Shown: positions 13,701 through 56,630 of the stretch, one piece after another | Layout: each line of letters starts with the position of its first letter | Position numbering within the stretch: position 1 is the first letter of the stretch | Source: Squalus acanthias | Taxonomy: Eukaryota | Direction of reading: 5' to 3' | Assembly: GCA_030390025.1 (NCBI GenBank) | Contig: JASTWF010000288.1 | Span: 372,001 to 436,000 of the forward strand | DNA length: 64,000 nt | Position numbers and translations under genes: made by a program | Notes under the pieces: model-generated | Databases searched by the model: none | What the model was told of the DNA's origin: nothing | The model's input: the letters and a program-made list of their open reading frames with translations, nothing else

Positions 13701-14208
13701 GGTGAGACCACACCTTGAGTACTGTGTGCAGTTTTGGTCGCCTTATCTGAGGAAGGATGTTCTTGCCATGGAAGGAGTTCAGCGAAGATTCACAAGGCTG
13801 ATACCTGGGATGGCAGGAATGACATATGAGGAGAGATTGGGTCGATTGGGCTTATACTCGCTGGAGTATAGAAGAATGAGAGGGGATCTCATCGAAACAT
13901 ATAAAATTCTGACAGGTCTGGACAAACTAGATGCAGGAAGAATGTTCCTGGTGGTCGGAGAGTCCAGAACCAGGGGTCATAATCTAAGGATAAGGGGTAA
14001 GCCATTTAGGACAGAAATGAGGAAGAATTTCTTCACCCAGAGAGTGGTGAACCTGTGGAATTCTCTAACCACAGAAGGTAGTTGAGGCCAAGTCATTAAA
14101 TATATTCAAGAATGAGTTAGATATATTTCTAAAAGCTAAAGGTATCAAGGGATATGGGGAGAAGGCAGGTACAGGGTACTGAGTTTGGATGATCAGCCAT
14201 GATCTCAT
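10790..14208 (+). mobile_element. CR1 LINE with near-complete ORF2 (APE endonuclease + RT), interrupted by a MITE and carrying an internal deletion
   Basis: LNARSIRNK, GITETW, GDFN, DHN (APE); YLDFQKAFDKV, GVPQGS, FADD (RT); ORFs 10851-11162 and 11818-14085 join in frame once the MITE is removed. Confidence 0.95.
11148..11910. mobile_element. Non-autonomous PIF/Harbinger-type MITE (763 bp)
   Basis: TIRs GGCCCAGAAATT / AATTTTTGGGCC (11/12); 3-bp TSD ATT; AT-rich core. Confidence 0.85.
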
Positions 14209-22000: not shown

Positions 22001-22648
22001 AGGCATATGGGATACTTGCCTTCATTAACCGAGGCATAGAATACAAGAGCAGGGAGGTTATGACGAAGCTGTACAAAACGTTAGTTAGGCCACAGCTGGA
22101 ATACTGTGTGCAGTTCTGATCGCCACACTATAGGAAGGATGTGATTGCATTGGAGAGGGTGCAGAGGAGATTCACCAGGATGTTACCTGGGCTGGAGCGC
22201 TTCAGCTACGAAGAGAGAGACTGGACAGGCTGGTGTTGTTTTCCTTAGAGCAGAGAAGGCTAAGGGGGGACCTGTGAGGTGTACAAAATTATGAGGGGCA
22301 TGGATAGGGTAGATAGAAAGGAACTTTTCCCCTTAGTAGAGGGGTCAATAACCAGGGGGCATAGTTTCAAGGTAAGGGGCAGGAGGTTTAGAGGGGATTT
22401 GAGGAAAAACTTTTTCACCCAGAGGGTGGTTGGAATCGGGAACTCACTGCCTGAAAGGGTGGTAGAGGCAGGAACCCTCACAACATTCAAGGAGCATTTA
22501 GATGAGCACTTGAAATGCCATAGCATACAAGGCTACGGACCAAGTGCTGGAAAATGGGATTAGAATAGACAGGGCTTGATGGCTGGCGCGGACACGATGG
22601 GCCAAAGGGCCTCTTTCTGTGCTGTATAACTCTATGTCTCTATGACTC
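19021..22648 (+). mobile_element. CR1 LINE retaining 5' UTR, ORF1 N-terminus and degenerate ORF2
   Basis: ORF1 19426-19914 with CxxC..CxxC zinc finger plus leucine zipper, cut at IVIGD; ORF2 pieces to 22563; tail ACTCTATG; ACTC on both sides. Confidence 0.93.
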
Positions 22649-26950: not shown

Positions 26951-27017
26951 ATGGCTTCTCTGCTGACAGCATGTTTCTTTTTTATCTTCCTGTGCTGTTT
27001 TCACGATGCATATTCTG
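26951..27017 (+). CDS. MHC class I-like heavy chain exon 1, signal peptide MASLLTACFFFIFLCCFHDAYS(G)
   Basis: ATGG start; hydrophobic core; A-Y-S cleavage motif; 67 nt ending at phase-1 donor G|GTAAGA; splices in frame to give mature N-terminus GAHSL. Confidence 0.85.
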
Positions 27018-33099: not shown

Positions 33100-33360
33100 G
33101 TGCTCACTCCCTAAGTGTCCTACATACAGAACTGGCGCAGTGCGCTGATTTCCCCGAGTTTCATGCAGTGGTGATGTTGGACGATACTGTGATCATGAAC
33201 TATAACAGTGATACCAGCACTGTCCATCTTAAACATGAATGGATCGCAAAACACTTAACTGCTGATCAGAAGGAGCTTGAAGATCTGTCCGCACGAGAGG
33301 CCCACAATATAATGAAAACAGGACTGAACAATACCATGAGACTGACTAAGAGCACAGTCG
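33100..33360 (+). CDS. MHC class I-like heavy chain exon 2, alpha1 domain: GAHSLSVLHTELAQCADFPEFHAVVMLDDTVIMNYNSDTSTVHLKHEWIAKHLTADQKELEDLSAREAHNIMKTGLNNTMRLTKSTVG
   Basis: Branch CTAAC at 33074 plus TTTTCATCCTTCCAG acceptor; 261 nt, phase 1-1; donor G|GTGAGT; motifs GxHSL, FPEF.AV..LDD, Y.SD, W. Confidence 0.93.
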
Positions 33361-34780: not shown

Positions 34781-37700
34781 CTGTACACTTTCTCTGCGCT
34801 GGTTCCCGGCCCCATCTGCATTGTCTCTGTACTTGTTCTCAGTCCCCTGCACACTGTCTCTGCACTGGTTCCCAGCCCCTGTGCACTATTTCCCAGCCCC
34901 CTGTACACTGTCTCTGCGCTGTTACCCAACCCCTGTGCACTGTCTCTGTACTGGTTCACAGCCCCCTGTGCACTGTCTCTTCACTGGATCCCAGCCCTCT
35001 GTGCACACTGTCTCTGTACTGGTTCCCAGCCCCCTGTGCACTGTCTCTGGACTGGTTCCAGGCCCCCTGTGCACTGTCTCTGTACTGGATCCCTATCTCT
35101 GTGCACTGTCTCTGTACTGGTTCCCAGCCCCCTGTGCACTGTCTCTGTACTTGTTCCCAGCCACCTGTGCACTGTCTCTGTACTGGATCCCAGCCCCCTG
35201 TGCACTGTCTCTTCACTGGATCCCTATCTCTGAGCATTGTCTCTGTCCTGGTTCCCAGCCCTCTTCACAAGTTTCTGCACTAGTTCCAGGCCCACTGCGC
35301 ACTGTCTCTGTACTGGTTCCATGCCCCCTACACACTGTCTCTGTACTGGTTCCAGGCCCCCTGTGCACACTGTCGCTGTACTGGTTCCAGGCCCCCTGCA
35401 CACTGTCTCTGTACTGGTTCCAGGCCCCCTGTGCACACTGTCTCTGCACTGGTTCCAGGCCACCTGTGCACTCTGTCTCTGCACTGGTTCCCAGCCCCCT
35501 GTGCACTGTCTCTGTACTGGTTCCAGGCCCCCTGCACACTGTCTCTGTACTGGTTCCAGGCCCCCTACACACTGTCTCTGCACTGGTTCCAGGCCCCCTA
35601 CACACTGTCTCTGCACTGGTTCCAGGCCCCCTGTGCACCCTGTCTCTTTACTGGTTCCAGGCCCCCTGCACACTGTCTCTGTACTGGTTCCAGGCCCCCT
35701 GCACACTGGCCCTGTACTGGTTCCAGGCCCCCTGCACACTGTCTCTGTACTGGTTCCCGGCCCCCTGCGCACTGTCTCTGCACTGGTTCCAGGCCCCCTG
35801 CACACTGTCCCTGTACTGGTTCCAGGCCCCCTGTACAGTGTCTCTGTACTGGTTCCAGGCCCCCTACACACTGTCTTTGTACTGATTCCAGGCCCCCTAC
35901 ACACTGTCAATGTACTGGTTCCAGGCCCCTGCACACTGTCTCTGTACTGGTTCCAGGCCCCCTGAACACTGTCTCTGTACTGGTTCCAGGCCCCCTGCAC
36001 ACTGTCTCTGTACTGGTTCCAGGCCCCCTGTGCACACTGTCTCTGTACTGGTTCCAGGCCCCCTACACACTGTCTCTGTACTGGTTCCAGGCCCCCTGCA
36101 CACTGTCTCTGCACTGGTTCCAGGCCCCCTACACACTGTCTCTGTACTGGTTCCAGGCCCCCTGCACACTGTCTCTGTACTGGTTCCAGGCCCCCTGCAC
36201 ACTGTCTCTGCACTGGTTCCAGGCCCCCTGCACACTGTCTCTGTACTGGTTCCAGGCCCCCTGCACACTGTCTCTGTACTGGTTCCAGGCCCCCTGCACA
36301 CTGTCTCTGTACTGGTTCCAGGCCCCCTACACACTGCCTCTGTACTGGTTCCAGGCCCCCTGCACACTGTCTCTGTACTGGTTCCAGGCCCCCTGCACAC
36401 TGTCTCTGTACTGGTTCCAGGCCCCCTGCACACTGTCTCTGTACTGGTTCCAGGCCCCCTGCACACTGTCTCTGTACTGGTTCCAGGCCCCCTGCACACT
36501 GTCTCTGCACTGGTTCCAGGCCCCCTGCACACTGTCTCTGTACTGGTTCCAGGCCCCCTGCACACTGTCTCTGTACTGGTTCCAGGCCCCCTACACACTG
36601 TCTCTGTACTGGTTCCAGGCCCCCTGCACACTGTCTCTGCACTGGTTCCAGCCCCCTGCACACTGTCTCTGTACTGGTTCCAGGCCCCCTGCACACTGTC
36701 TCTGTACTGGTTCCAGGCCCCCTGCACACTGTCTCTGTACTGGTTCCAGGCCCCCTGCACACTGTCTCTGTACTGGTTCCAGGCCCCCTGCACACTGTCT
36801 CTGTACTGGTTCCAGGCCCCCTGTGCACACTGTCTCTGTACTGGTTCCAGGCCCCCTGCACACTGTCTCTGTACTGGTTCCAGGCCCCCTGCACACTGTC
36901 TCTGTACTGGTTCCAGGCCCCCTGCACACTGTCTCTGTACTGGTTCCAGGCCCCCTGCAGCACTGTCTCTGTACTGGTTCCAGGCCCCCTGCACACTGTC
37001 TCTGTACTGGTTCCAGGCCCCCTAGCACACTGTCTCTGTACTGGTTCCAGGCCCCCTACACACTGTCTCTGCACTAGTTCCAGGCCCACTGCGCACTGTC
37101 TCTGTACTGGTTCCATGCCCCCTACACACTGTCTCTGTACTGGTTCCAGGCCCCCTGTGCACACTGTCGCTGTACTGGTTCCAGGTCCCCTGCACACTGT
37201 CTCTGTACTGGTTCCAGGCCCCCTGTGCACACTGTCTCTGCACTGGTTCCAGGCCACCTGTGCACTCTGTCTCTGCACTGGTTCCCAGCCCCCTGTGCAC
37301 TGTCTCTGTGCTGGTTCCAGGCCCCCTGCACACTGTCTCTGTACTGGTTCCAGGTCCCCTACACACTGTCTCTGCACTGGTTCCAGGCCCCCTACACACT
37401 GTCTCTGCACTGGTTCCAGGTCCCCTGTGCACCCTGTCTCTTTACTGGTTCCAGGCCCTCTGCACACTGTCTCTGTACTGGTTCCAGGCCCCCTGCACAC
37501 TGGCCCTGTACTGGTTCCAGGCCCCCTGCACACTGTCTCTGTACTGGTTCCCGGCCCCCTGCGCACTGTCTCTGCACTGGTTCCAGGCCCCCTGCACACT
37601 GTCCCTGTACTGGTTCCAGGCCCCCTGTACAGTGTCTCTGTACTGGTTCCAGGCCCCCTACAAACTGTCTTTGTACTGGTTCCAGGCCCCCTACACACTG

Positions 37701-40700
37701 TCAATGTACTGGTTCCAGGACCCCTGCACACTGTCTCTGTACTGGTTCCAGGCCCCCTGAACACTGTCTCTGTACTGGTTCCAGGCCCCCTGTGCACACT
37801 GTCTCTGTACTGGTTCCAGGCCCCCTACACACCATCTCTGTACTGGTTCCAGGCCCCCTGTACACTGTCTCTGCACTGGTTCCAGGCCCCCTACACACTG
37901 TCTCTGTACTGGTTCCAGGCCCCCTGCACACTGTCTCTGTACTTGTTCCAGGCCCCCTGCACACTGGACCTGTACTGGTTCCAGGCTCCCTGCACACTCT
38001 CTCTGTACTGGTTCCAGGCCCCCTACACACTGCCTCTGTACTGGTTCCAGGCCCCCTGCACACTGTCTCTGTACTGGTTCCAGGGCCCCTACACACTGCC
38101 TCTGTACTGGTTCCAGGCTCCCTGCACACTGTCTCTGTACTGGTTCCAGGCCCCCTGCACACTGTCTCTGTACTGGTTCCCGGCCCCCTGTGCACTGTCT
38201 CTTCACTGGATCCCGATCTCAGATCATTGTCTCTGTCCTGGTTCCCAGCCCTCTTCACAAGTTTCTGCACTAGTTCCAGGCCCACTGCGCACTGTCTCTG
38301 TACTGGTTCCATGCCCCCTACACACTGTCTCTGTACTGGTTCCAGGCCCCCTGTGCACACTGTCGCTGTACTGGTTCCAGGCCCCCTGCACACTGTCTCT
38401 GTACTGGTTCCAGGCCCCCTGTGCACACTGTCTCTGCACTGGTTCCAGGCCACCTGTGCACTCTGTCTCTGCACTGGTTCCCAGCCCCCTGTGCACTGTC
38501 TCTGTGCTGGTTCCAGGCCCCCTGCACACTGTCTCTGTACTGGTTCCAGGCCCCCTACACACTGTCTCTGCACTGGTTCCAGGCCCCCTACACACTGTCT
38601 CTGCACTGGTTCCAGGCCCCCTGTGCACCCTGTCTCTTTACTGGTTCCAGGCCCCCTGCACACTGTCTCTGTACTGGTTCCAGGCCCCCTGCACACTGGC
38701 CCTGTACTGGTTCCAGGCCCCCTGCACACTGTCTCTGTACTGGTTCCCGGCCCCCTGCGCACTGTCTCTGCACTGGTTCCAGGCCCCCTGCACACTGTCC
38801 CTGTACTGGTTCCAGGCCCCCTATACAGTGTCTCTGTACTGGTTCCAGGCCCCCTACACACTGTCTTTGTACTGGTTCCAGGCCCCCTACACACTGTCAA
38901 TGTACTGGTTCCAGGACCCCTGCACACTGTCTCTGTACTGGTTCCAGGCCCCCTGAACACTGTCTCTGCACTGGTTCCAGGCCCCCTGCACACTGTCTCT
39001 GTACTGGTTCCAGGCCCCCTGTGCACACTGTCTCTGTACTGGTTCCAGGCCCCCTACACACCATCTCTGTACTGGTTCCAGGCCCCCTGTACACTGTCTC
39101 TGCACTGGTTCCAGGCCCCCTACACACTGTCTCTGTACTGGTTCCAGGCCCCCTGCACACTGTCTCTGTACTGGTTCCAGGCCCCCTGCACACTGGACCT
39201 GTACTGGTTCCAGGCCCCCTACACACTGTCTCTGCACTGGTTCCAGGCCCCCTGTGCACCCTGTCTCTTGACTGGTTCCAGGCCCCCTGCACACTGTCTC
39301 TGTACTGGTTCCAGGCCCCCTGCACACTGGCCCTGTACTGGTTCCAGGCCCCCTGCACACTGTCTCTGTACTGGTTCCCGGCCCCCTGCGCACTGTCTCT
39401 GCACTGGTTCCAGGCCCCCTGCACACTGTCCCTGTACTGGTTCCAGGCCCCCTATACAGTGTCTCTGTACTGGTTCCAGGCCCCCTACACACTGTCTCTG
39501 TACTGGTTCCAGGCCCCCTACACACTGTCACTGTACTGGTTCCAGGCCCCCTGCACACTGTCTCTGTACTGGTTCCAGGCCCCCTGAACACTGTCTCTGT
39601 ACTGGTTCCAGGCCCCCTGCACACTGTCTCTGTACTGGTTCCAGGCCCCCTGTGCACACTGTCTCTGTACTGGTTCCAGGCCCCCTACACACCATCTCTG
39701 TACTGGTTCCAGGCCCCCTGTACACTGTCTCTGCACTGGTTCCAGGCCCCCTACACACTGTCTCTGTACTGGTTCCAGGCCCCCTGCACACTGTCTCTGT
39801 ACTTGTTCCAGGCCCCCTGCACACTGGACCTGTACTGGTTCCAGGCTCCCTGCACACTCTCTCTGTACTGGTTCCAGGCCCCCTACACACTGCCTCTGTA
39901 CTGGTTCCAAGCCCCCTGCACACTGTCTCTATACTGGTTCCAGGCCCCCTACACACTGCCTCTGTACTGGTTCCAGGCTCCCTGCACACTGTCTCTGTAC
40001 TGGTTCCAGGCCCCCTGCACACTGTCTCTGTACTGGTTCCAGGCCCCCTGCACACTATCTCTGCACTGTTTCCCAGCCCCCTGCACACTGCCTCTGTACT
40101 GGTTCCAGGCCCCCTGCACACTGTCTCTGCACTGGTTCCAGGCCCCCTGCACACTGTCTCTGCACTGGTTCCAGGCCCCCTACACACTGTCTCTGCACTG
40201 GTTCCAGGCCCCCTGCACACTGTCTCTGTACTGGTTCCAGGCCCCCTACACACTGTCTCTGTACTGGTTCCAGGCCCCCTGCACACTGTCTCTGTACTGG
40301 TTCCAGGCCCCCTGCACACTGTCTCTGTACTGGTTCCAGGCCCCCTGCACACTGTCTCTGTACTGGTTCCAGGCCCCCTGCACACTGTCTCTGTACTGGT
40401 TCCAGGCCCCCTGCACACTGTCTCTGCACTGGTTCCAGGCCCCCTGCACACTGTCTCTGCACTGGTTCCAGGCCCCCTGTGCACACTGTCTCTGTACTGG
40501 TTCCAGGCCCCCTGCACACTGTCTCTGTACTGGTTCCAGGCCCCCTGCACACTGTCTCTGTACTGGTTCCAGGCCCCCTGCACACTGTCTCTGTACTGGT
40601 TCCAGGCCCCCTGTGCACACTGTCTCTGTACTGGTTCCCGGCCTCCTGTGCACACTGTCTCTGTACTGGTTCCAGGCCCCCTGCACACTGTCTCCGTACT

Positions 40701-43700
40701 GGTTCCAGGCCCCCTACACACTGTCTCTGTACTGGTTCCAGGCCACCTACACAATGTCTCTGTACTGGTTCCAGGCCCCCTGCACACTGTCTCTGTACTG
40801 GTTCCAGGCTCCCTACACACTGTCTCTGTACTGGTTCCAGGCCCCCTAAGCACTGTCTCTGTATTGATTCCAGGCCCCCTACACACTGTCTCTGCACTGG
40901 TTCCAGGCCCCCTGTGCACACTGTCTCTGCACTGGTTCCAGGCCCCCTGCACACTGTCTCTGTACTGGTTCCAGGCCCCCTGCACACTGTCTCTGCACTG
41001 TTTCCCAGCCCCCTACACACTGTCTCTGCACTGGTTCAAGGCCCCCTGTGCACTCATGTCTCTGTACTGTTTCCCAGCCCCCTGTGCACACTGTCTCTGC
41101 ACTGGTTCGAGGCCCCCTACACACTGTCTCTGCACTGTTTCCAGGCCCCCTGCACACTGTCTCTGTCCTGGTTCCAGACCACCTACATACTGTCTCTGCA
41201 CTGGTTCCAGGCCCCCTGTGCACTGTCTCTGTACTGGTTCCAGGCCCCCTGCACACTGTCTCTGTACTGGTTCCAGGCCCCCTGCACACTGTCTCTGTAG
41301 TGGTTCCATGCCCCCTACACACTGTCTCTGTACTGGTTCCAGGCCCCCTGTGCACACTGTCGCTGTACTGGTTCCAGGCCCCCTGCACACTGTCTCTGTA
41401 CTGGTTCCAGGCCCCCTGTGCACACTGTCTCTGCACTGGTTCCAGGCCACCTGTGCACTCTGTCTCTGCACTGGTTCCCAGCCCCCTGTGCACTGTCTCT
41501 GTGCTGGTTCCAAGCCCCCTGCACACTGTCTCTGTACTGGTTCCAGGCCCCCTACACACTGTCTCTGCACTGGTTCCAGGCCCCCTACACACTGTCTCTG
41601 CACTGGTTCCAGGCCCCCTGTGCACCCTGTCTCTTTACTGGTTCCAGGCCCCCTGCACACTGTCTCTGTACTGGTTCCAGGCCCCCTGCACACTGGCCCT
41701 GTACTAGTTCCAGGCCCCCTGCACACTGTCTCTGTACTGGTTCCCAGCCCCCTGCGCACTGTCTCTGCACTGGTTCCAGGCCCCCTGCACACTGTCCCTG
41801 TACTGGTTCCAGGCCCCCTATACAGTGTCTCTGTACCGGTTCCAGGCCCCCTACACACTGTCTTTGTACTGGTTCCAGGCCCCCTACACACTGTCAATGT
41901 ACTGGTTCCAGGACCCCTGCACACTGTCTCTGTACTGGTTCCAGGCCCCCTGAACACTGTCTCTGCACTGGTTCCAGGCCCCCTGCACACTGTCTCTGTA
42001 CTGGTTCCAGGCCCCCTGTGCACACTGTCTCTGTACTGGTTCCAGGCCCCCTACACACCATCTCTGTACTGGTTCCAGGCCCCCTGCACACTGTCTCTGT
42101 ACTGGTTCCAGGCCCCCTGCACACTGTCTCTGTACTGGTTCCATGCCCCTTACACACTGTCTCTGTACTGGTTCCAGGCCCCCTACACACTGTCTCTGCA
42201 CTGGTTCCAGGCCCACTGTGCACCCTGTCTCTTTACTGGTTCCAGGCCCCCTGCACACTGTCTCTGTACTGGTTCCAGGCCCCCTGCACACTGGCCCTGT
42301 ACTGGTTCCAGGCCCCCTGCACACTGTCTCTGTGCTGGTTCCCGGCCCCCTGCGCACTGTCTCTGCACTGGTTCCAGGCCCCCTGCACACTGTCCCTGTA
42401 CTGGTTCCAGGCCCCCTATACAGTGTCTCTGTACTGGTTCCAGGCCCCCTACACACTGTCTCTGCACTGGTTCCAGGCCCCCTGCACACTGTCCCTGTAC
42501 TGGTTCCAAGCCCCCTATACAGTGTCTCTGTACTGGTTCCAGGCCCCCTACACACTGTCTTTGTTCTGGTTCCAGGCCCCCTACACACTGTCAATGTACT
42601 GGTTCCAGGACCCCTGCACACTGTCTCTGTACTGGTTCCAGGCCCCCTGAACACTGTCTCTGTACTGGTTCCAGGCCCCCTGCACACTGTCTCTGTACTG
42701 GTTCCAGGCCCCCTGTGCACACTGTCTCTGTACTGGTTCCAGGCCCCCTACACACCATCTCTGTACTGGTTCCAGGCCCCCTGTACACTGTCTCTGCACT
42801 GGTTCCAGGCCCCCTACACACTGTCTCTGTACTGGTTCCAGGCCCCCTGCACACTGTCTCTGTACTTGTTCCAGGCCCCCTGCACACTGGACCTGTACTG
42901 GTTCCAGGCTCCCTGCACACTCTCTCTGCACTGGTTCCAGGCCCCCTACACACTGCCTCTGTACTGGTTCCAGGCCCCCTACACACTGTCTCTGCACTGG
43001 TTCCAGGCCCCCTACACACTGTCTCTGCACTGGTTCCAGGCCCCCTGTGCACCCTGTCTCTTTACTGGTTCCAGGCCCCCTGCACACTGTCTCTGTACTG
43101 GTTCCAGGCCCCCTGCACACTGGCCCTGTACTGGTTCCAGGCCCCCTGCACACTGTCTCTGTACTGGTTCCCGGCCCCCTGCGCACTGTCTCTGCACTGG
43201 TTCCAGGCCCCCTGCACACTGTCCCTGTACTGGTTCCAGGCCCCCTATACAGTGTCTCTGTACTGGTTCCAGGCCCCCTACACACTGTCTTTGTACTGGT
43301 TCCAGGCCCCCTACACACTGTCAATGTACTGGTTCCAGGACCCCTGCACACTGTCTCTGTACTGGTTCCAGGCCCCCTGAACACTGTCTCTGCACTGGTT
43401 CCAGGCCCCCTGCACACTGTCTCTGTACTGGTTCCAGGCCCCCTGTGCACACTGTCTCTGTACTGGTTCCAGGCCCCCTACACACCATCTCTGTACTGGT
43501 TCCAGGCCCCCTGTACACTGTCTCTGCACTGGTTCCAGGCCCCCTACACACTGTCTCTGTACTGGTTCCAGGCCCCCTGCACACTGTCTCTGTACTTGTT
43601 CCAGGCCCCCTGCACACTGGACCTGTACTGGTTCCAGGCCCCCTACACACTGTCTCTGCACTGGTTCCAGGCCCCCTGTGCACCCTGTCTCTTTACTGGT

Positions 43701-46700
43701 TCCAGGCCCCCTGCACACTGTCTCTGTACTGGTTCCAGGCCCCCTGCACACTGGCCCTGTACTGGTTCCAGGCCCCCTGCACACTGTCTCTGTACTGGTT
43801 CCCGGCCCCCTGCGCACTGTCTCTGCACTGGTTCCAGGCCCCCTGCACACTGTCCCTGTACTGGTTCCAGGCCCCCTATACAGTGTCTCTGTACTGGTTC
43901 CAGGCCCCCTACACACTGTCTCTGCACTGGTTCCAGGCCCCCTGCACACTGTCCCTGTACTGGTTCCAGGCCCCCTATACAGTGTCTCTGTACTGGTTCC
44001 AGGCCCCCTACACACTGTCTTTGTTCTGGTTCCAGGCCCCCTACACACTGTCAATGTACTGGTTCCAGGACCCCTGCACACTGTCTCTGTACTGGTTCCA
44101 GGCCTTCCAGGCCCCCTGCACACTGTCTCTGTACTGGTTCCAGGCCCCCTGCACACTGTCTCTGTACTGGTTCCAGGCCCCCTGCACACTGTCTCTGTAC
44201 TGGTTCCAGGCCCCCTGCACACTGTCTCTGTACTGGTTCCAGGCCCCCTGCACACTGTCTCTGTACTGGTTCCAGGCCCCCTGCACACTGTCTCTGTACT
44301 GGTTCCAGGCCCCCTGCACACTGTCTCTGTACTGGTTCCAGGCCCCCTGCACACTGTCTCTGTACTGGTTCCAGGCCCCCTGCACACTGTCTCTGTACTG
44401 ATTCCAGGCCCCTGCACACTGTCTCTGTACTGGTTCCAGGCCCCCTGCACACTGTCTCTGTACTGGTTCCAGGCCCCCTGCACACTGTCTCTGCACTGGT
44501 TCCAGGCCCCCTGCACACTGTCTCTGTACTGGTTCCAGGCCCCCTGCACACTGTCTCTGTACTGGTTCCAGGCCCCCTGCACACTGTCTCTGCACTGGTT
44601 CCAGGCCCCCTACACACTGTCTCTGTACTGGTTCCAGGCCCCCTGCACACTGTCTCTGTACTGGTTCCAGGCCCCCTGCACACTGTCTCTGTACTGGTTC
44701 CAGGCCCCCTGTGCACACTGTCTCTGTACTGGTTCCAGGCCCCCTGCACACTGTCTCTGCACTGGTTCCAGGCCCCCTGCACACTGTCTCTGTACTGGTT
44801 CCAGGCCCCCTGCACACTGTCTCTGTACTGGTTCCAGGCCCCCTACACACTGTCTCTGTACTGGTTCCAGGCCCCCTGCACACTGTCTCTGTACTGGTTC
44901 CAGGCCCCCTGCACACTGTCTCTGTACTGGTTCCAGGCCCCCTACACACTGTCTCTGTACTGGTTCCAGCCCCCTACACACTGTCTCTGTACTGGTTCCA
45001 GGCCCCCTGTGCACACTGTCTCTGTACTGGTTCCAGGCCCCCTGCACACTGTCTCTGTACTGGTTCCAGGCCCCCTGCACACTGTCTCTGTACTGGTTCC
45101 AGGCCCCCTGCACACTGTCTCTGTACTGGTTCCAGGCCCCCTGCACACTGTCTCTGTACTGTTTCCAGCCCCCTACACACTGTCTCTGTACTGGTTCCAG
45201 GCCCCCTTCACACTGTCTCTGTACTGGTTCCAGGCCCCCTGTGCACACTGTCTCTGTACTGGTTCCAGGCCCCCTGCACACTGTCTCTGTACTGGTTCCA
45301 GGCCCCCTGCACACTGTCTCTGTACTGGTTCCAGGCCCCCTACACACTGTCTCTGTACTGGTTCCAGGCCCCCTACACACTGTCTCTGTACTGGTTCCAG
45401 GCCCCCTGACACACTGTCTCTGTACTGGTTCCAGGCCCCCTGCACACTGTCTCTGTACTGGTTCCAGGCCCCCTGCACACTGTCTCTGTACTGGTTCCAG
45501 GCCCCCTGCACACTGTCTCTGTACTGGTTCCAGGCCCCCTACACACTGTCTCTGTACTGGTTCCAGGCCCCCTGCACACTGTCTCTGTACTGGTTCCAGG
45601 CCCCCTACACACTGTCTCTGTACTGGTTCCAGGCCCCCTGTACACTGTCTCTGTACTGGTTCCAGGCCCCCTGCACACTGTCTCTGTACTGGTTCCAGGC
45701 CCCCTACACACTGTCTCTGTACTGGTTCCAGGCCCCCTGCACACTGTCTCTGTACTGGTTCCAGGCCCCCTACACACTGTCTCTGTACTGGTTCCAGGCC
45801 CCCTGTGCACACTGTCTCTGTACTGGTTCCAGGCCCCCTGCACACTGTCTCTGCACTGGTTCCAGGCCCCCTACACACTGTCTCTGTACTGGTTCCAGGC
45901 CCCCTGCACACTGTCTCTGTACTGGTTCCAGGCCCCCTGCACACTGTCTCTGTACTGGTTCCAGGCCCCCTGCACACTGTCTCTGTACTGGTTCCAGGCC
46001 CCCTGCACACTGTCTCTGCACTGGTTCCAGGCCCCCTGCACACTGTCTCTGTACTGGTTCCAGGCCCCTACACACTGTCTCTGTACTGGTTCCAGGCCCC
46101 CTGCACACTGTCTCTGTACTGGTTCCAGGCCCCCTGTGCACACTGTCCCTGTACTGGTTCCAGGCCCCCTGCGCACTGTCTCTGTACTGGTTCCAGGCCC
46201 CCTGCACACTGTCTCTGCACTGGTTCCAGGCCTCCTACACACTGTCTCTGCACTGGTTCCAGGCCCCCTGCACTCTGTCTCTGTACTGGTTCCAGGCCCC
46301 CTGCACACTGTCTCTGTACTGGTTCCAGGCTCCCTGTACACTGTCTCTGCACTGGTTCCAGGCCCCCTGTGCACACTGTCTCTGCACTGGTTCCAGGCCC
46401 CCTACACACTGTCTCTGCACTGGTTCCCAGCCCCCTGTGCACACTGTCTCTGCACTGGTTCCAGGCCTCCTGTGCACACTGTCTCTGCACTGGTTCCAGG
46501 CCCCCTGCACACTGTCTCTGCACTGGTTCCAGGCCCCCTGTGCACACTGTCTCTGCACTGGTTCCAGGCCTCCTGTGCACACTGTCTCTGCACTGGTTCC
46601 AGGCCCCCTGCACACTGTCTCTGTACTGGTTCCAGGCCCCCTGCACACTGTCTCTGTACTGGTTCCCAGCCCCCTGCCACACTGCCTCTGTACTGGTTCC

Positions 46701-49700
46701 ATGCCCCTTTGCACACTGTCTCTGTACTGGTTCCAGGCCCCTACACACCTGTCTCTGCACTGGTTCCAGGCCCACTGTCACACTGTCTCTGCACTGGTTC
46801 CCAGGCCCCCTGCACACTGTCTCTGTACTGGTTCCAGGCCCCTTGCACACTGTCTCTGTACTGGTTCCCAGGCCCCTTCACACTGTCTCCTGTACTGGTT
46901 CCAGGCCCCCTGCACACCTGTCTCCTGTACTGGTTCCAGGCCCCCTGCACACCTGTCTCTGTACTGGTTCCCAGGCCCCCTGTGCCACACGTGTCTCTGT
47001 ACTGGTTCCAGGCCCCCTGTCACACTGTCTCTGCACTGGTTCCAGGCCCCCCTGTACACTGTCTCTGTACTGGTTCCAAGGACCCCCTACACACTGTCTA
47101 TGTACTGGTCCAGGCCCCCTGACACACTGTCTTCTGTACTGGTTCCAGGCCCCTGCACACTGTCTCTGTACTGGTTCCAGGCCCCCCTGCACACTGTCTC
47201 TGTACTGGTTCCAGGCCCCCTGCACACTGTCTCTGTACTGGTTCCAGGCCCCCTGTGCACTGTCTCTGTACTGGTTCCAGGCCCCCTGTACACTGTCTCT
47301 GTACTGGTTCCAGGCCTCCTGTACACTGTCTCTGTACTGGTTCCAGGCCCCCTACACACTGTCTCTGTACTGGTTCCAGGCCCCCTGTACACTGTCTCTG
47401 CACTGGTTCCAGGCCCCTACACACTGTCTCTGTACTGGTTCCAGGCCCCCTGTGCACACTGTCTCTGTACTGGTTCCAGGCCCCCTACACACTGTCTCTG
47501 TACTGATTCCAGGCCCCCTGTGCACACTGTCTGTACTGGTTCCAGGCCTCCTACACACTGTCTCTGCACTGGTTCCAGGCCCTCTACACACTGTCTCTGC
47601 ACTGGTTCCAGGCCCCCTGTGCACTGTCTCTGTACTGGTTCCAGGCCCCCTACACACTGTCTCTGTACTGGTTCCAGGCCCCCTACACACTGTCTCTGTA
47701 CTGGTTCCAGGCCCCCTGGCACACTGTCTCTGTACTGGTTCCAGGCCCCCTGCACACTGTCTCTGTACTGGTTCCAGGCCCCCTGTACACTGTCTCTGCA
47801 CTGGTTCCAGGCCTCCTACACACTGTCTCTGCACTGGTTCCAGGCCCCCTGCACACTGTCTCTGTACTGGTTCCAGGCCCCCTACACACTGTCTCTGTAC
47901 TGGTTCCAGGCCCCCTGTACACTGTCTCTGCACTGGTTCCAGGCCCCCTGTGCACACTGTCTCTGCACTGGTTCCAGGCCCCCTGCACACTGTCTCTGCA
48001 CTGGTTCCAGGCCCCCTGTGCACACTGTCTCTGCACTGGTTCCCAGCCCCCTGCACACTGTCTCTGCACTGGTTCCAGGCCCCCTGCACACTGTCTCTGC
48101 ACTGGTTCCAGGCCTCCTGTGCACACTGTCTCTGCACTGGTTCCAGGCCCCCTGTGCACACTGTCTCTGCACTGGTTCCAGGCCCCCTGCACACTGTCTC
48201 TGCTACTGTTCCAGGCCCCCTACACACTGTCTCTGTACTGGTTCCAGGCCCCCTACACACTGTCTCTGCTCTGGTTCCAGGCCCCCTGCACACTGTCTCT
48301 GTACTGGTTCCAGGCCCCCTGCACACTGTCTCTGTACTGGTTCCAGGCCCCCTGCACACTGTCTCTGTACTGGTTCCAGCCCCCTGCACACTGTCTCTGT
48401 ACTGGTTCCAGGCCCCCTGTGCACACTGTCTCTGTACTGGTTCCAGGCCCCCTGTCACACTGTCTCTGCACTGGTTCCAGGCCCCCTGAGCACACTGTCT
48501 CTGTACTGGTTCCAGGCCCCCTGCACACTGTCTCTGCACTGGTTCCAGCCCCCTGCACACTGTCTCTGTACTGGTTCCAGGCCCCCTGCACACTGTCTCT
48601 GTACTGGTTCCAGGCCCCCTGCACACTGTCTCTGTACTGGTTCCATGCCCCCTTCACACTGTCTCTGTACTGGTTCCAGGCCCCCTGCACACTGTCTCTG
48701 TACTGGTTCCAGGTCCCCTGTGCACACTGTCTCTGTACTGGTTCCAGGCCCCCTACACACTGTCTCTGTACTGGTTCCAGGCCCCCTGTGCACTGTCTCT
48801 GCACTGGTTCCAGGCCCCCTGCACACTGTCTCTCTACTCGTTCCAGGCCCCCTACACACTGTCTCTGTACTGGTTCCAGGCCCCCTACACACTGTCTCTG
48901 CCTTGGTTCCAGGCCCGCTGTGCACACTGTCTCTGTACTGGTTCCAGGCCCCCTGCACACTGTCTCTGTACTGGTTCCAGGCCCCCTGTGCACACTGTCT
49001 CTGTACTGGTTCCCAGCCCCCTGTGCACACTGTCTCTGTACTGGTTCCAGGCCCCCTGTGCACACTGTCTCTGTACTGGTTCCAGGCCCCCTACACACTG
49101 TCTCTGCACTGGTTCCCAGCCCCCTGTGCACACTGTCTCTGTCTGGTTCCCAGCCCCCTGTGCACACTGTCTCTGCACTGTTTCCCAGCCCCCTGTGCAC
49201 ACTGTCTCTGCACTGGTTCCAGGCAGCCTGTACACTGTCTCTGTACTGGTTCCAGGCCCCCTGCGCACTGTCTCTGTACTGGTTCCAGGCCCCCTGTACG
49301 CTGTCTCTGTACTGGTTCCAGGCCCCCTGTGCACACTGTCTATGTACTGGTTCCAGGCCCCCTGTGCACACTGTCTCTGTACTGGTTCCAGGCCCCCTAC
49401 ACACTGTCTCTGTACTGGTTCCAGGCCCCCTGTGCACTGTCTCTGTACTGGTTCCAGGCCCCCTACACACTGTCTCTGTACTGGTTCCAGGCCCCCTACA
49501 CACTGTCTCTGTACTGGTTCCAGGCCCCCTGCACACTGTCTCTGCACTGGTTCCAGGCCCCCTACACACTGTCTCTGTACTGGTTCCAGGCCCCCTGTCA
49601 CACTGTCTCTGTACTGGTTCCAGGCCCCCTGTACACTGTCTCTGTACTGGTTCCAGGCCCCTGCACACTGTCTCTGTACTGGTTCCAGGCCCCCTGCACA

Positions 49701-52700
49701 CTGTCTCTGCACTGGTTCCAGGCCCCCTACACACTGTCTCTGTACTGGTTCCAGGCCCCCTGTGCACACTGTCTCTGTACTGGTTCCAGGCCCCCTACAC
49801 ACTGTCTCTGTACTGGTTCCAGGCCCCCTACACACTGTCTCTGTACTGGTTCCAGGCCCCCTGCACACTGTCTCTGTACTGGTTCCAGGCCCCCTGCACA
49901 CTGTCTCTGCACTGGTTCCAGGCCCCCTGTGCACACTGTCTCTGTACTGGTTCCAGGCCCCTACACACTGTCTCTGCACTGGTTCCAGGCCCCCTGCACA
50001 CTGTCTCTGTACTGGTTCCAGGCCCCCTACACACTGTCTCTGTACTGGTTCCAGGCCCCCTGTACACTGTCTCTGTACTGGTTCCAGGCCCCCTGTGCAC
50101 ACTGTCTCTGTACTGGTTCCAGGCCCCCTGTCACACTGTCTCTGCACTGGTTCCAGGCCCCCTGTGCACACTGTCTCTGTACTGGTTCCAGGCCCCCTTG
50201 CACACTGTCTCTGTACTGGTTCCAGTCCCCTGCACACTGTCTCTGTACTGGTTCCAGGCCCCTGCACACTGTCTCTGAACTGGTTCCAGGCCCCCTGCAC
50301 ACTGTCTCTGTACTGGTTCCAGGCCCCCTGCACACTGTCTCTGTACTGGTTCCAGGCCTCCTGCACACTGTCTCTGTACTGGTTCCAGGCCCCCTACACA
50401 CTGTCTCTGTACTGGTTCCAGGCCCCCTGTACACTGTCTCTGTACTGGTTCCAGGCCCCCTGCACACTGTCTCTGTACTGGTTCCAGGCCCCCTGTACAC
50501 TGTCTCTGTACTGGTTCCAGGCCCCCTACACACTGTCTCTGTACTGGTTCCAGGCCCCCTGCACACTGTCTCTGTACTGGTTCCAGGCCCCCTGCACACT
50601 GTCTCTGTACTGGTTCCAGGCCCCCTGTCACACTGTCTCTGTACTGGTTCCAGGCCCCCTGTGCACACTGTCTCTGCACTGGTTCCAGGCCCCCTGCACA
50701 CTGTCTCTGCACTGGTTCCAGCCCCCTGCACACTGTCTCTGTACTGGTTCCAGGCCCCCTGCACACTGTCTCTGTACTGGTTCCAGGCCCCCTGCACACT
50801 GTCTCTGTACTGGTTCCAGGCCCCCTGCACACTGTCTCTGTACTGGTTCCAGGCCCCCTGCACACTGTCTCTGTACTGGTTCCAGGCCCCCTGCACACTG
50901 TCTCTGTACTGGTTCCAGGCCCCCTGTGCACTGTCTCTGCACTGGTTCCAGGCCCCCTGCACACTGTCTCTCTACTCGTTCCAGGCCCCCTACACACTGT
51001 CTCTGTACTGGTTCCAGGCCCCCTACACACTGTCTCTGCACTGGTTCCAGGCCCCCTGTGCACACTGTCTCTGTACTGGTTCCAGGCCCCCTGCACACTG
51101 TCTCTGTACTGGTTCCAGGCCCCCTGTGCACACTGTCTCTGTACTGGTTCCCAGCCCCCTGTGCACACTGTCTCTGTACTGGTTCCAGGCCCCCTGTGCA
51201 CACTGTCTCTGTACTGGTTCCAGGCCCCCTACACACTGTCTCTGCACTGGTTCCCAGCCCCCTGTGCACACTGTCTCTGTCTGGTTCCCAGCCCCCTGTG
51301 CACACTGTCTCTGCACTGTTTCCCAGCCCCCTGTGCACACTGTCTCTGCACTGGTTCCAGGCAGCCTGTACACTGTCTCTGTACTGGTTCCAGGCCCCCT
51401 GCGCACTGTCTCTGTACTGGTTCCAGGACCCCTGTACGCTGTCTCTGTACTGGTTCCAGGCCCCCTGTGCACACTGTCTATGTACTGGTTCCAGGCCCCC
51501 TGTGCACACTGTCTCTGTACTGGTTCCATGCCCCCTACACACTGTCTCTGTACTGGTTCCAGGCCCCCTGTGCACTGTCTCTGTACTGGTTCCAGGCCCC
51601 CTACACACTGTCTCTGTACTGGTTCCAGGCCCCCTACACACTGTCTCTGTACTGGTTCCAGGCCCCCTGCACACTGTCTCTGCACTGGTTCCAGGCCCCC
51701 TACACACTGTCTCTGAACTGGTTCCAGGCCTCCTGTACACTGTCTCTGTACTGGTTCCAGGCCTCCTGTACACTGTCTCTGTACTGGTTCCAGGCCCTCT
51801 GCACACTGTCTCTGTACTGGTTCCAGGCCCCCTGCACACTGTCTCTTCACTGGTTCCAGGCCCCCTACACACCGTCTCTGTACTGTTTCCCAGCCCCCTG
51901 TGCACACTGTCTCTGCACTGGTTCCAGGCCCCCTACACACTGTCTCTGTACTGGTTCCAGGCCCCCGACACACTGTCTCTGTGCTGGTTCCAGACCCCTG
52001 CACACTGTCTCTGTGCTGGTTCCAGGCCCCCTGCACACTGTCTCTGCACTGGTTCCAGGCCCCCTGTGCACACTGTCTCTGTACTGGTTCCAGGCCCTCT
52101 ACACACTGTCTCTGCACTGGTTCCAGGCCCGCTACACCCTGTCTCTGAACAGGTTCCAGGCCCCCTACACACTGTCTTTGTACTGGTTCCAGGCCTCCTG
52201 TACACTGTCTCTGTACTGGTTCCAGGCCTCCTGTTCACTGTCTCTGTCCTGGTTGCAGGCTCCCTGTGCACACTGTCTCTGCACTGGTTCCAGGCCCCCT
52301 GTGCACACTGTCTCTGTACTGGTTCCAGGCCCCCTACACACTGTCTCTGTGCTGATTACAGTCCCCTGCACACTGTCTCTGTACTGGTTCCAGGCCCTCT
52401 ACACCCTGTCTCTGAACAGGTTCCAGGCCCCCTGCACACTGTCTCTGTACTGGTTCCAGGCCTCCTTTACACTGTCTCTGTACTGGTTCCAGGCCTCCTG
52501 TACACTGTCTCTGTACTGGTTCCAGGCCTCCTGTACACAGTCTCTGTACTGGTTCCAGGCCCCCTGTACACTGTCTGTGTACTGGTTCCAGGCCCCCTGC
52601 ACACTGTCTCTGTCCTCGTTCCAGGCCCCCTGTACACTGTCTCTGCACTGGTTCCAGGCCTCCTACACACTGTCTTTGCACTGGTTCCAGGACCCCTGCA

Positions 52701-55700
52701 CTCTATCTCTGTACTGGTTCCAGGCCCCCTGCACACTGTCTCTGTACTGGTTCCAGGCCCCCTGTACACTGTCTCTGCACTGGTTCCAGGCCCCCTGTGC
52801 ACACTGTCTCTGCACTGGTTCCAGGCCCCCTACACACTGTCTCTGCACTGGTTCCCAGCCCCCTGTGCACACTGTCTCTCCACTGGTTCCCAGCAACCTG
52901 TGCACACTGTCTCTGCACTGGTTCCAGTCCCCCTGCACACTGTCTCTGCACTGGTTCCAGGCCTCCTACACACTGTCTTTGCACTGGTTCCAGGACCCCT
53001 GCACTCTATCTCTGTACTGGTTCCAGGCCCCCTGCACACTGTCTCTGTACTGGTTCCAGGCCCCCTGTGCACTGTCTCTGCACTGGTTCCAGGCCCCCTG
53101 CACACTGTCTCTCTACTCGTTCCAGGCCCCCTACACACTGTCTCTGTACTGGTTCCAGGCCCCCTACACACTGTCTCTGCATTGGTTCCAGGCCCGCTGT
53201 GCACACTGTCTCTGTACTGGTTCCAGGCCCCCTGCACACTGTATCTGTACTGGTTCCAGGCCCCCTGTGCACACTGTCTCTGTACTGGTTCCCAGCCCCC
53301 TGTGCACACTGTCTCTGTACTGGTTCCAGGCCCCCTGTGCACACTGTCTCTGTACTGGTTCCAGGCCCCCTACACACTGTCTCTGCACTGGTTCCCAGCC
53401 CCCTGTGCACACTGTCTCTGTCTGGTTCCCAGCCCCCTGTGCACACTGTCTCTGCACTGTTTCCCAGCCCCCTGTGCACACTGTCTCTGCACTGGTTCCA
53501 GGCAGCCTGTACACTGTCTCTGTACTGGTTCCAGGCCCCCTGCGCACTGTCTCTGTACTGGTTCCAGGACCCCTGTACGCTGTCTCTGTACTGGTTCCAG
53601 GCCCCCTGTGCACACTGTCTATGTACTGGTTCCAGGCCCCCTGTGCACACTGTCTCTGTACTGGTTCCATGCCCCCTACACACTGTCTCTGTACTGGTTC
53701 CAGGCCCCCTGTGCACTGTCTCTGTACTGGTTCCAGGCCCCCTACACACTGTCTCTGTACTGGTTCCAGGCCCCCTACACACTGTCTCTGTACTGGTTCC
53801 AGGCCCCCTGCACACTGTCTCTGCACTGGTTCCAGGCCCCCTACACACTGTCTCTGAACTGGTTCCAGGCCTCCTGTACACTGTCTCTGTACTGGTTCCA
53901 GGCCTCCTGTACACTGTCTCTGTACTGGTTCCAGGCCCTCTGCACACTGTCTCTGTACTGGTTCCAGGCCCCCTGCACACTGTCTCTTCACTGGTTCCAG
54001 GCCCCCTACACACCGTCTCTGTACTGTTTCCCAGCCCCCTGTGCACACTGTCTCTGCACTGGTTCCAGGCCCCCTACACACTGTCTCTGTACTGGTTCCA
54101 GGCCCCCGACACACTGTCTCTGTGCTGGTTCCAGGCCCCCTGCACACTGTCTCTGTGCTGGTTCCAGGCCCCCTGCACACTGTCTCTGCACTGGTTCCAG
54201 GCCCCCTGTGCACACTGTCTCTGTACTGGTTCCAGGCCCTCTACACACTGTCTCTGCACTGGTTCCAGGCCCGCTACACCCTGTCTCTGAACAGGTTCCA
54301 GGCCCCCTACACACTGTCTTTGTACTGGTTCCAGGCCTCCTGTACACTGTCTCTGTACTGGTTCCAGGCCTCCTGTTCACTGTCTCTGTCCTGGTTCCAG
54401 GCTCCCTGTGCACACTGTCTCTGCACTGGTTCCAGGCCCCCTGTGCACACTGTCTCTGTACTGGTTCCAGGCCCCCTACACACTGTCTCTGTGCTGATTA
54501 CAGTCCCCTGCACACTGTCTCTGTACTGGTTCCAGGCCCTCTACACCCTGTCTCTGAACAGGTTCCAGGCCCCCTGCACACTGTCTCTGTACTGGTTCCA
54601 GGCCTCCTTTACACTGTCTCTGTACTGGTTCCAGGCCTCCTGTACACTGTCTCTGTACTGGTTCCAGGCCTCCTGTACACAGTCTCTGTACTGGTTCCAG
54701 GCCCCCTGTACACTGTCTGTGTACTGGTTCCAGGCCCCCTGCACACTGTCTCTGTACTGGTTGCAGGCCCCCTACACACTGCCTCTGCACTGGTTCCAGG
54801 CCCCCTACACACCGTCTCTGTACTGTTTCCCAGCCCCCTGTACACACTGTCCCTGCACTGGTTCATGGCCCCCTGTGCACACTGTCTCTGCACTGGTTCC
54901 AGGCCCCCTGTGCACACTGTCTCTGCACTGGTTCCAGGCCCCCTGTGCACTGTCTCTGTACTGGTTCCAGGCCCCCTACACACTGTCTCTGTACTGGTTT
55001 CAGGTCCCCTGTGCACTGTCTCTGTACTGGTTCCAGGCCCCCTACACACTGTCTCTGTACAGGATTCAGGCCCCCTTTACACTGTCACTGTCGTGGTTCC
55101 AGGCCCACTACACACTGTCTCTGCACTGGTTCACGGCCCCCTGTGCACACTGTCTCTGCACTGGTTCCAGGCCCCCTGCGCACTGTCTCTGTACTGGTTC
55201 CAGGCCCCCTACACACTGTCTCTGCACTGATTCCAGGCCCCCTGTACACTGTCTCTGTACTGATTCCAGGCCCCCTGTACACTGTCTCTGTACTGGTTCC
55301 AGGCCCCCTACACACTGTCTCTGTACTGATTCCCCGCCCCCTGTACACTGTCTTTGTACTGGTTCCAGGCCCCCTGCGCACTGAATCTGTACTGGTTCCA
55401 GGCCCCCTGTGTACACTGTCTCTGTAATGGTTCCAGGCCCCCTGCACACTGTCTCTGCACTGGTTCCAGGCCCCCAGAGCACACTGTCTCTGCACTGGTT
55501 CCAGGCCCCCTGTGCACACTGTCTCTGTACTGGTTCCAGGCCCCCTACACACTGTCCCTGCACTGGTTCCAGGCCCCCTGTGCACTGTCTCTGTACTGGT
55601 TCCAGGCCTCCTACACACTGTCTCTGTACTGGTTCCAGTCCCCCTACACACTGTCTCTGCACTGGTTCCAGGCCCCCTGTGCACTGTCTCTGTACTGGTT

Positions 55701-56135
55701 CCAGGCCCCCTGTGCACACTGTCCCTGTACTGGTTCCAGGCCCCCTGCGCACTGTCTCTGTCCTGGTTCCAGGCCCCCTGTACACTGTCTCTGCACTGGT
55801 TCCAGGCCTCCTACACACTTTCTTTGTACTGGTTCCAGGACCCCTGCACTCTGTCTCTGTACTGGTTCCAGGCCCCCTGCACACTGTCTCTGTACTGGTT
55901 CCAGGCCTCCTGTGCACACTGTCTCTGCACTGGTTCCCGGCCCCCTGCACACTGTCTCTGTATTGGTTCCAGGCCTCCTGTGCACACTGTCTCTGTACTG
56001 GTTCCCGGCCCCCTGCACACTGTCTCTGTACTGGTTCCAGGCCTCCTGTGCACACTGTCTCTGTACTGGTTCCAGTCCACCTGTGCACACTGTCCCTGCA
56101 CTGGTTCCCAGCCCCCTGTGCACTGTCTCTGCATT
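34781..56135. repeat. 21.3-kb 33-bp minisatellite CACACTGTCTCTGTACTGGTTCCAGGCCCCCTG (35-bp and 32-bp variants), in MHC intron 2
   Basis: About 640 units; degenerate edges; higher-order duplications. Confidence 0.99.
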
Positions 56136-56344
56136 GGAGAACACCAAGGACCCCAGGCATACAGTAGGCCTCATGCCTCCAGCTTAATTTCCTTAGGAGT
56201 GGCACCCAAGGCTCCTTAATGCCCACCATCGTATTCTCATGCCCAATAGTCTGAATCTGGCCCAACCGATCATCTCTACAGGTGCAACATTCATTCTTCA
56301 TTACGAGTTTGGTGATTCTTTTCCGAATGTTCATTCTCTTTCAG

Positions 56345-56620
56345 GCCCCCACCTATTTCAGTGGATGAAGAAGGTCGAGGTAAACGATGATGTCCTTGTG
56401 AAGTGGGACGTACTCTTCCGGTTCGATGGCAAGGATTTCATTCGCCTGGACCAGCAGACCATGAACTGGGTCGTGGTGAGATCTGAAGCTCAGAGCTTAG
56501 AGAGACAGTTTACCAAAGAGCCAGACTGGAGAAACACCTGGAGGGAAAATCTCGAACACACCGTGGTCGTTGGATTGAACGATCTGCTTCAGAAAGGCAA
56601 ACAGTTTGTGGAAAGAAAGA
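56345..56620 (+). CDS. MHC class I-like heavy chain exon 3, alpha2 domain: GPHLFQWMKKVEVNDDVLVKWDVLFRFDGKDFIRLDQQTMNWVVVRSEAQSLERQFTKEPDWRNTWRENLEHTVVVGLNDLLQKGKQFVERK
   Basis: TTCATTCTCTTTCAG acceptor; 276 nt (canonical alpha2 exon size), phase 1-1; donor A|GTACGT; motifs G.H..QWM, FDGKDFI.LD..T..W, LL..GK...ERK. Confidence 0.93.
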
Positions 56621-56630
56621 GTACGTTTGG

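Follow-up and report, generated by a model that had tools for sequence, protein, structure and literature searches.

[quoted passage not shown]

Introduction

The disulfide bond between C101 and C164 of the alpha2 domain is regarded as a near-universal requirement for the folding of MHC class I molecules and for their chaperone-assisted loading. As a rule W167 shuts the groove at its A-pocket end, and nine positions (Y7, Y59, Y/R84, Y/F123, T143, K146, W147, Y159 and Y171) are the peptide-terminus residues. The class I-like molecules YF1 and MR1 keep both alpha2 cysteines. In MIC/ULBP, HFE and FcRn the groove is closed or collapsed, and HFE, FcRn and MIC work without groove cargo. Among shark class I genes, UCA was reportedly first described from Squalus acanthias by Wang et al. 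in 2003 (PMID 12715247). Almeida et al. (J Immunol 207:824, 2021) are said to treat UEA as a shark multigene class Ib family distantly related to UCA, to limit the UCA lineage to dogfish sharks and to note the loss of the alpha2 bond in UCA/UEA.

According to PMC9359109, the C101-C164 bond is one of two conserved bonds. McShan 2019 (PMC6926029) locates it at the A-pocket, linking the alpha2-2 helix with the sheet, and reports that its mutation abolishes TAPBPR binding. In the alpha2 part of Supplementary File 10 of Verissimo et al. 2023 (PMC10751288), 23 of the 26 rows keep both cysteines, the exceptions being the UCA of Squalus, a row from the nurse shark that also bears the label UCA, and one from a stingray under the label UHA. 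Section 9 of the same paper names UEA multicopy and MHC-linked and states that elasmobranch class Ib genes all map to the MHC. We found no text in the open literature that discusses the bond loss in UCA or UEA, and the word 'disulfide' is absent from PMC10751288 and PMC12562908; the loss may still be reported.

Results

Our analysis covered a 64,000-nucleotide stretch of Squalus acanthias DNA (the window), which carries the leader, alpha1 and alpha2 exons of a class I gene (Table 1). The alpha2 exon comprises 276 nt in phase 1/1 between a TTTCAG acceptor and a GTACGT donor, and its 91-codon open frame encodes no cysteine at all (the frame used in the initial annotation begins at 56347, the frame from 56345 being closed). 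Searches with HMMER against class I chains of the PDB aligned QWMKKV with QWMYGC and LEHTVVVGL with LENTCIEWL, so that both valines fall on the cysteines of 5gjx, 7cpo and HLA-E (6ggm), and the Verissimo 2023 alignment (PMC10751288) gives the same register. Because these sources agree, the register of V101 and V164 is not in doubt. All that the initial annotation had read from the letters, namely the two motifs, the open frame and the cysteine-free exon, was thus confirmed, and its concern that the cysteine equivalents might lie elsewhere was answered by the PDB and published alignments, both of which put valine on both cysteines. An independent protein record (100% over 91 aa), a contig assembled from a public sequencing run (0 differences over 278 nt) and an upstream tandem copy of the gene, with identical valine codons, all carry the same residues. 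Given this agreement, the two valines reflect neither chance nor an assembly error.

Table 1. Features of the UCA locus, with positions counted from the first letter of the window
Feature	Position	Strand	Remark
UCA leader exon, coding part (signal peptide, 22 codons + 1 nt)	26951..27017	+	100% to protein residues 1-23
UCA alpha1 exon, 261 nt, phase 1/1; Y7V, Y59Q, Y/R84L	33100..33360	+	
33-bp minisatellite, ~637 copies (21 kb), filling the alpha1-alpha2 intron	34896..56131	.	Tandem Repeats Finder
alpha2 exon without Cys, UCA (Q8HWI9 / AF515705)	56345..56620	+	sequence identity
K99-K100 in place of the usual Y/F99-G100	56368..56373	+	
Val (GTC) at the C101 position	56374..56376	+	V in 66/71 UEA-type sequences
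Trp at position 112, usually Gly	56404..56406	+	candidate accompanying change, close to the lost bond
Val (GTG) at the C164 position	56563..56565	+	V in 0/71 UEA-type sequences
Gly in place of W167	56572..56574	+	

At 100% identity, the exon matches a section of a Squalus acanthias protein of 370 residues (Q8HWI9 / AAN78091.1) annotated as an MHC class I antigen of the non-classical kind. Its alpha1, alpha2 and alpha3 domains also appear under the label Sacanthias_UCA_AF515705 in the part of Supplementary File 10 of Verissimo et al. 2023 (PMC10751288) that holds these domains, with valine in both cysteine columns. On this identity the gene is the published non-classical class I gene UCA, and the pair of valines is a real feature of an already known gene. 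The caution that the loss might already be reported for shark non-classical lineages was therefore well placed, the valines standing in that 2023 supplement.

The whole UCA gene lies on contig C2098, where the alpha3, transmembrane (TM) and last exons follow beyond the window at 437.6, 438.6 and 453.3 kb. Its exon plan is that of a class I gene with phase 1 introns (leader, alpha1, alpha2, C1-set alpha3, TM and cytoplasmic), a GT donor directly follows the leader exon, and the protein matches PF00129 (E 8e-21) and PF07654 (E 3e-15). Leader, alpha1 and alpha2 are identical to Q8HWI9, alpha3 and the last exon each differ by one residue, and, over the first five exons, the residues at the junctions of the database protein are those expected from the splice phases in the genome. 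Both cysteines of the alpha3 disulfide are present. The alpha1 domain carries a lone unpaired cysteine in a loop near position 16, which could permit dimers, and an N-glycan sequon (NNT) at position 79 in place of 86. At C2098:438716-438740 the TM exon lacks one base relative to the database protein and the tandem copy, so that the cytoplasmic tail would be frameshifted and short; this discrepancy is either an assembly indel or an allele.

Sampled sequence words of UCA were all held by 6 of the 24 listed public sequencing runs, from two studies, and the search of these runs listed no RNA run as a holder of the sequence. In run X1, a contig covers exactly positions 56344-56621 with 0 differences, preceded by 262 other bases (alpha1 comprises 261 nt), and the depth in the intron upstream of the alpha2 exon is zero; a contig of run X8, from another study, begins at the same exon boundary. 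Runs X1 and X8 were only guessed to be RNA, and it is their exon-exact contig ends that identify spliced molecules. Two further runs were not counted as support, namely X15 (RNA, raw reads, ~26% read), with a depth of 1-2 on part of the exon, and X9 (organism C), with single short pieces off position 101. UCA is thus complete in its extracellular exons and is spliced. Within the few individuals covered it is also nearly monomorphic, alpha1 and alpha2 being identical to the independent record and the X1 and X8 contigs showing 0 differences; the high groove polymorphism expected of a classical class Ia gene (UAA) is absent from these individuals.

The tandem copy (C2098:269640-298700), about 130-146 kb upstream, is 93% identical in alpha1 and 87% in alpha2. 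Its alpha2 is frameshifted, its alpha3 lacks two codons and the stretch searched gave no counterpart of the last exon, so that this copy is probably a pseudogene. Its alpha1-alpha2 intron is only ~6.8 kb long. Protein searches for UCA orthologues found the type sequence alone, the other Squaliformes being perhaps poorly sampled, and a search of representative proteins returned UEA-type and distant class I matches.

AlphaFold2, run on a 72-row alignment, predicted a normal class I ectodomain (mean pLDDT of 81.6) with a platform of strands and two helices, in which block pLDDT over alpha1/alpha2 was mostly 85-97, position 101 lay in a strand and position 164 in the long helix; such confidence leans on the alignment and says nothing of stability. 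The model superposed on chicken, duck and shark class I structures at ~2-2.5 A (chicken class I, Z of 26.9 and rmsd of 2.1 A over 269 residues), in fold searches whose top rows are tied and template-like and do not separate ligand classes. The structure prediction proposed by the initial annotation thus returned a retained class I fold. Of the beta2m-contact residues, UCA keeps Q96, D119, G120, D122 and P235, and position 117 is arginine where a small residue is usual.

The groove itself is predicted to be remodelled, as the initial annotation had supposed from the two valines. At the nine peptide-terminus positions UCA has V, Q, L, F, L, Q, F, N and L, so that a single one (F123) is kept, and the A-pocket corner is changed by G100K, G112W, Y159N, W167G and Y171L together with Y7V and Y59Q of alpha1. 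W112 is a candidate co-change, its nearness to the lost bond being judged by the known class I fold; UEA-type proteins mostly have arginine here (66 of 75 rows). The mean hydropathy over 40 groove positions was 1.12 in UCA versus 0.39-0.49 in three UAA/UBA-type genes of the same genome. The hydrophobicity is not a consequence of the missing bond, since values of 0.89 and 1.18 were obtained for two cysteine-keeping genes on contig C26 and no more than 0.02-0.76 for the UEA-type rows.

We propose that V101 would stand in for the covalent staple through non-polar packing under the alpha2 helix and that the A-pocket corner may have been rebuilt around it by the seven replacements named above. The resulting groove would combine an aromatic F-half (W97, F116, F147, W152 and W156) with an opened A-half holding a few polar residues (H9, K99, N159 and T163), and UCA would no longer depend on classical peptide loading. 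With one of nine anchors kept and a hydrophobic groove, its ligand would likely be something other than a peptide. Going further, UCA may be a near-monomorphic class Ib molecule of the cell surface, and what it displays there would be hydrophobic or amphipathic and not a peptide. This reading, suggested by the sequence, we hold tentatively, as just short of evenly balanced.

The main rival to non-peptide display is a closed groove without any ligand. UCA would then resemble MIC/ULBP, HFE and FcRn, whose grooves are closed or collapsed, and its outer surface would do the work, either in transport or by engaging a receptor. The loss of eight of the nine peptide anchors and the near-monomorphism suit this explanation, the five bulky aromatic residues could fill the F-half, R117 stands where a small residue usually faces beta2m, and HFE, FcRn and MIC set a precedent for function without cargo. 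However, the A-half loses bulk through Y7V, Y59Q, Y159N, W167G and Y171L, which suggests a cavity, and the structures closest to the model, in their tied and template-like rows, include open-groove class I molecules and the lipid-binding YF1. We therefore consider an empty groove possible but rather doubtful.

UCA is not the only bond-less gene of its genome. A cluster on contig C3663 likewise has alpha2 exons without both cysteines, and among 23 translated alpha2 exons (part of 50 family matches, some of them probably haplotype duplicates) 8 lack both cysteines and 15 keep both. A search with one member of the C3663 family retrieved 80 proteins from many shark genera. From sequence, we infer the label 'UEA type' for this family (P0007/C3663), because it is multicopy, matches a nurse-shark row of the published supplement by eye and agrees with UEA as reportedly described by Almeida 2021. 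The nurse-shark member is labelled 'Gcirratum_UCA' in the relevant row of Supplementary File 10 (PMC10751288).

C101 occurs in none of the 79 alignable alpha2 sequences of these 80 proteins (P0112, which has no alpha2, was left out). After removal of the partial or mis-spliced P0072, P0013, P0115 and P0022 and collapse of duplicates, 71 distinct sequences remained, in which the two positions behave very differently. Position 101 is nearly fixed (V66, I2, A2 and L1), whereas position 164 takes nine residues (L23, F23, C6, Y6, S5, G4, T1, W1 and H1, with one gap), never valine, so that V/V at 101/164 occurs in 0/71. The initial annotation had proposed a paired, compensating change of both cysteines to valine; the positions instead change separately. 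Ranked by entropy among 91 columns, position 164 comes 7th and position 101 60th. The surrounding positions 163, 167, 159, 99 and 100 rank 3, 4, 5, 9 and 14, and positions 114, 147, 152 and 156 are nearly invariant. Because several other top-ranked columns (158, 180, 170 and 166) probably face outward, the variability is not confined to the groove.

A lone C164 without C101 is found in 7 of the 79 rows (P0041, P0054, P0082, P0089, P0102, P0103 and P0109), or 6 of the 71 distinct sequences, and constitutes a free thiol in the groove wall of these proteins. On a 64-row FastTree tree, from which further isoform, fused or partial rows had been dropped, position 164 required 20 changes, and the lone C164 rows were scattered over four genera, their 5 rows costing 5 changes. 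A single base separates a cysteine codon from codons of F, Y, S, G and W, and the change from TGY to GTN requires two. The scattered C164 may fit retention after the loss of C101 and also reversion from F, Y or S; since the scatter admits reversion, it weakens the order of events.

Trees of the alpha2 domain joined UCA with the UEA-type family at a support of 97/94, and of 75/91 when columns 99-101, 164 and 167 were removed, and a 22-row tree of alpha1+2+3 without the trait columns did so at 94/90, short of the starred threshold of the tool. Alpha3 alone grouped them in 0% and 4% of bootstrap trees without rejecting the clade (AU p=0.25), and alpha1 alone did not resolve it (16%; AU p=0.54). 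UCA formed a long branch outside the UEA clade in every tree, at best as its sister, and two of the four data sets placed it as sister to the UEA-type family; the rows used included neither UDA nor a UFA of the nurse-shark type. On this evidence we regard a single origin of the bond loss in UCA and the UEA-type family as probable. Because a large related shark family also lacks the bond, the loss is likely to be ancient and to have come about in steps, and not by a dedicated paired exchange for valine. Most likely, C101V was fixed once in the common ancestor of UCA and the UEA-type family, and position 164 was then free to vary.

Alternatively, the two lineages may have lost the bond independently, and V101 would then be convergent because valine suits a beta-strand position under the helix. 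The failure of alpha3 trees to group them, the very long branch of UCA and the stingray UHA row without both cysteines in the part of the PMC10751288 supplement noted above, which indicates that loss can recur, all fit this course. It is, however, opposed by the 94/90 support obtained without the trait columns and by the fact that no single domain rejects the clade. Both groups also share, beyond the cysteines, W152 and W156 and the loss of G100, G112 and W167, and each independent change from TGY to GTN would cost two base changes. We consider independent loss unlikely.

A gene-specific swap of both cysteines, in which packing of V101 against V164 replaces the bond, was the reading of the initial annotation, and it accommodates the two valines, the retention of both codons in the tandem copy and the usual secondary structure of both positions in the model. 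As a history it is largely refuted by the family, where V101 is general and V164 is not, where V/V is missing from all 71 sequences, and where position 164 tolerates G, S, F, Y, W and a lone C and changes freely over the tree, so that we hold it to be very improbable. That UCA is simply decaying and shed its cysteines under relaxed selection, as the frameshifted tandem copy with no matching last exon in the searched stretch, the one-base discrepancy at the TM exon end and the long branch might suggest, is scarcely credible given that all extracellular exons are open and have good splice sites, that an independent protein record shows the identical alpha1 and alpha2, and that spliced contigs come from two studies, and given a retained alpha3 disulfide, a pN/pS against the tandem copy of 0.40 (on the small counts of 20.5 N and 14.5 S) and a bond-less family that spans many shark genera. 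The initial argument against decay is thus upheld by the complete and spliced extracellular exons, the near-monomorphism and the predicted class I fold.

About 40 kb past the last exon of UCA, on the same strand, we identified one exon for an I-domain and two for FG-GAP repeats, and their best matches over a single stretch were to integrins alphaM, alphaL, alphaE and alphaX; a leukocyte-type I-domain integrin alpha gene (C2098:494190-515963) thus adjoins UCA. A partial scan of 119 long frames revealed no MHC marker on C2098, an unplaced contig, and a class II beta family search of the genome gave no match and was uninformative. In the reedfish, the neighbours of the alphaM/X genes include mapk3, fus and armc5, and a pair of beta2m-like genes lies at a distance of 1-3 Mb. 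Given its leukocyte integrin neighbour, UCA may lie outside the MHC, on its as yet unplaced contig, as an exception to the rule for elasmobranch class Ib genes. Near the start of the contig, a long frame (C2098:64003-65202) encodes an IIGP-type interferon-inducible GTPase (PF05049, E 4.5e-98). LTR-element-like pol pieces lie downstream of UCA and a Harbinger-type transposase upstream (L020:5966-8550, L107, L112), and LINE reverse-transcriptase-like frames were recognised by eye in the window at 7873-8910, 11755-14082 and 21076-22116.

Discussion

Taken as a whole, the account that we favour, with somewhat more confidence than doubt, is that V101 was fixed a single time, that position 164 was thereby freed, that the A-pocket corner was rebuilt and that UCA became a class Ib molecule without classical peptide loading. 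For specialists the surprise is limited, as the gene and its sequences are published. What is added is the asymmetry between positions 101 and 164, a variable corner at the site of the lost bond, support from trees for a sister position of UCA to the UEA-type family and a possible location outside the MHC. With a natural and expressed family that lacks the bond, its purpose can readily be tested, and the natural series of residues at position 164 (L, F, Y, S, G, W, C and V) can be used in stability studies.

A wider picture, which we put forward as speculative and rather improbable in its entirety, would make UCA and UEA one shark-wide class I clade that has done without the alpha2 disulfide for hundreds of millions of years. 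V101 would have unlocked the A-pocket corner (positions 99, 100, 159, 163, 164 and 167) as the main diversifying site beside a constant aromatic F-half, so that one half of the groove would hold lipid and stay fixed and the other could be tuned to the head group. UCA would have branched off, evolved fast and moved out of the MHC to its present place next to a leukocyte integrin gene, and, if this is true, it breaks the published rule that elasmobranch class Ib genes are located in the MHC.

Compared with known systems, UCA shares the exon plan and predicted fold of the classical shark genes UAA and UBA, and its model matches the nurse shark structure 6lup with a Z of 26.1 and an rmsd of 2.4 A over 265 residues. 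However, UAA and UBA keep C101-C164 and most peptide anchors, and UCA keeps neither. The UEA-type proteins resemble UCA in lacking C101, usually with V101 in its place, but they are only ~30-36% identical to it, multicopy and variable. They never have V164, mostly keep T143, K146 and W147 and often Y171, all of which UCA has lost, and their groove hydropathy, by our own measure, is lower.

Among the genes that keep both cysteines, we observed ~20 alpha2 matches of a class Ib family at C26:30.7-38.4 Mb and on C99, C1054, C2252 and C3263, of which five were translated and some may be haplotype duplicates. This family resembles rows labelled UGA in the part of the PMC10751288 supplement that covers them, and it may be expanded in Squalus acanthias, as a review calls UGA single- or low-copy in the passage that treats it. 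Its sister is a divergent class I gene (C26:30699747-30710387) with both cysteines, an extra cysteine at position 99 and a groove of very high hydrophobicity.

Low polymorphism, lost peptide anchors and a hydrophobic groove are features that UCA has in common with chicken YF1 (3p73, 9eb3), MR1, CD1 and the shark UFA and UGA, the last two being named as lipid- or metabolite-binding in a passage of PMC12562908 that refers to a personal communication. Unlike UCA, the CD1, UFA and UGA rows of the published alignment (PMC10751288) keep both alpha2 cysteines. By analogy, UCA may work in the manner of the lipid and metabolite presenters of the CD1, YF1 and MR1 kind.
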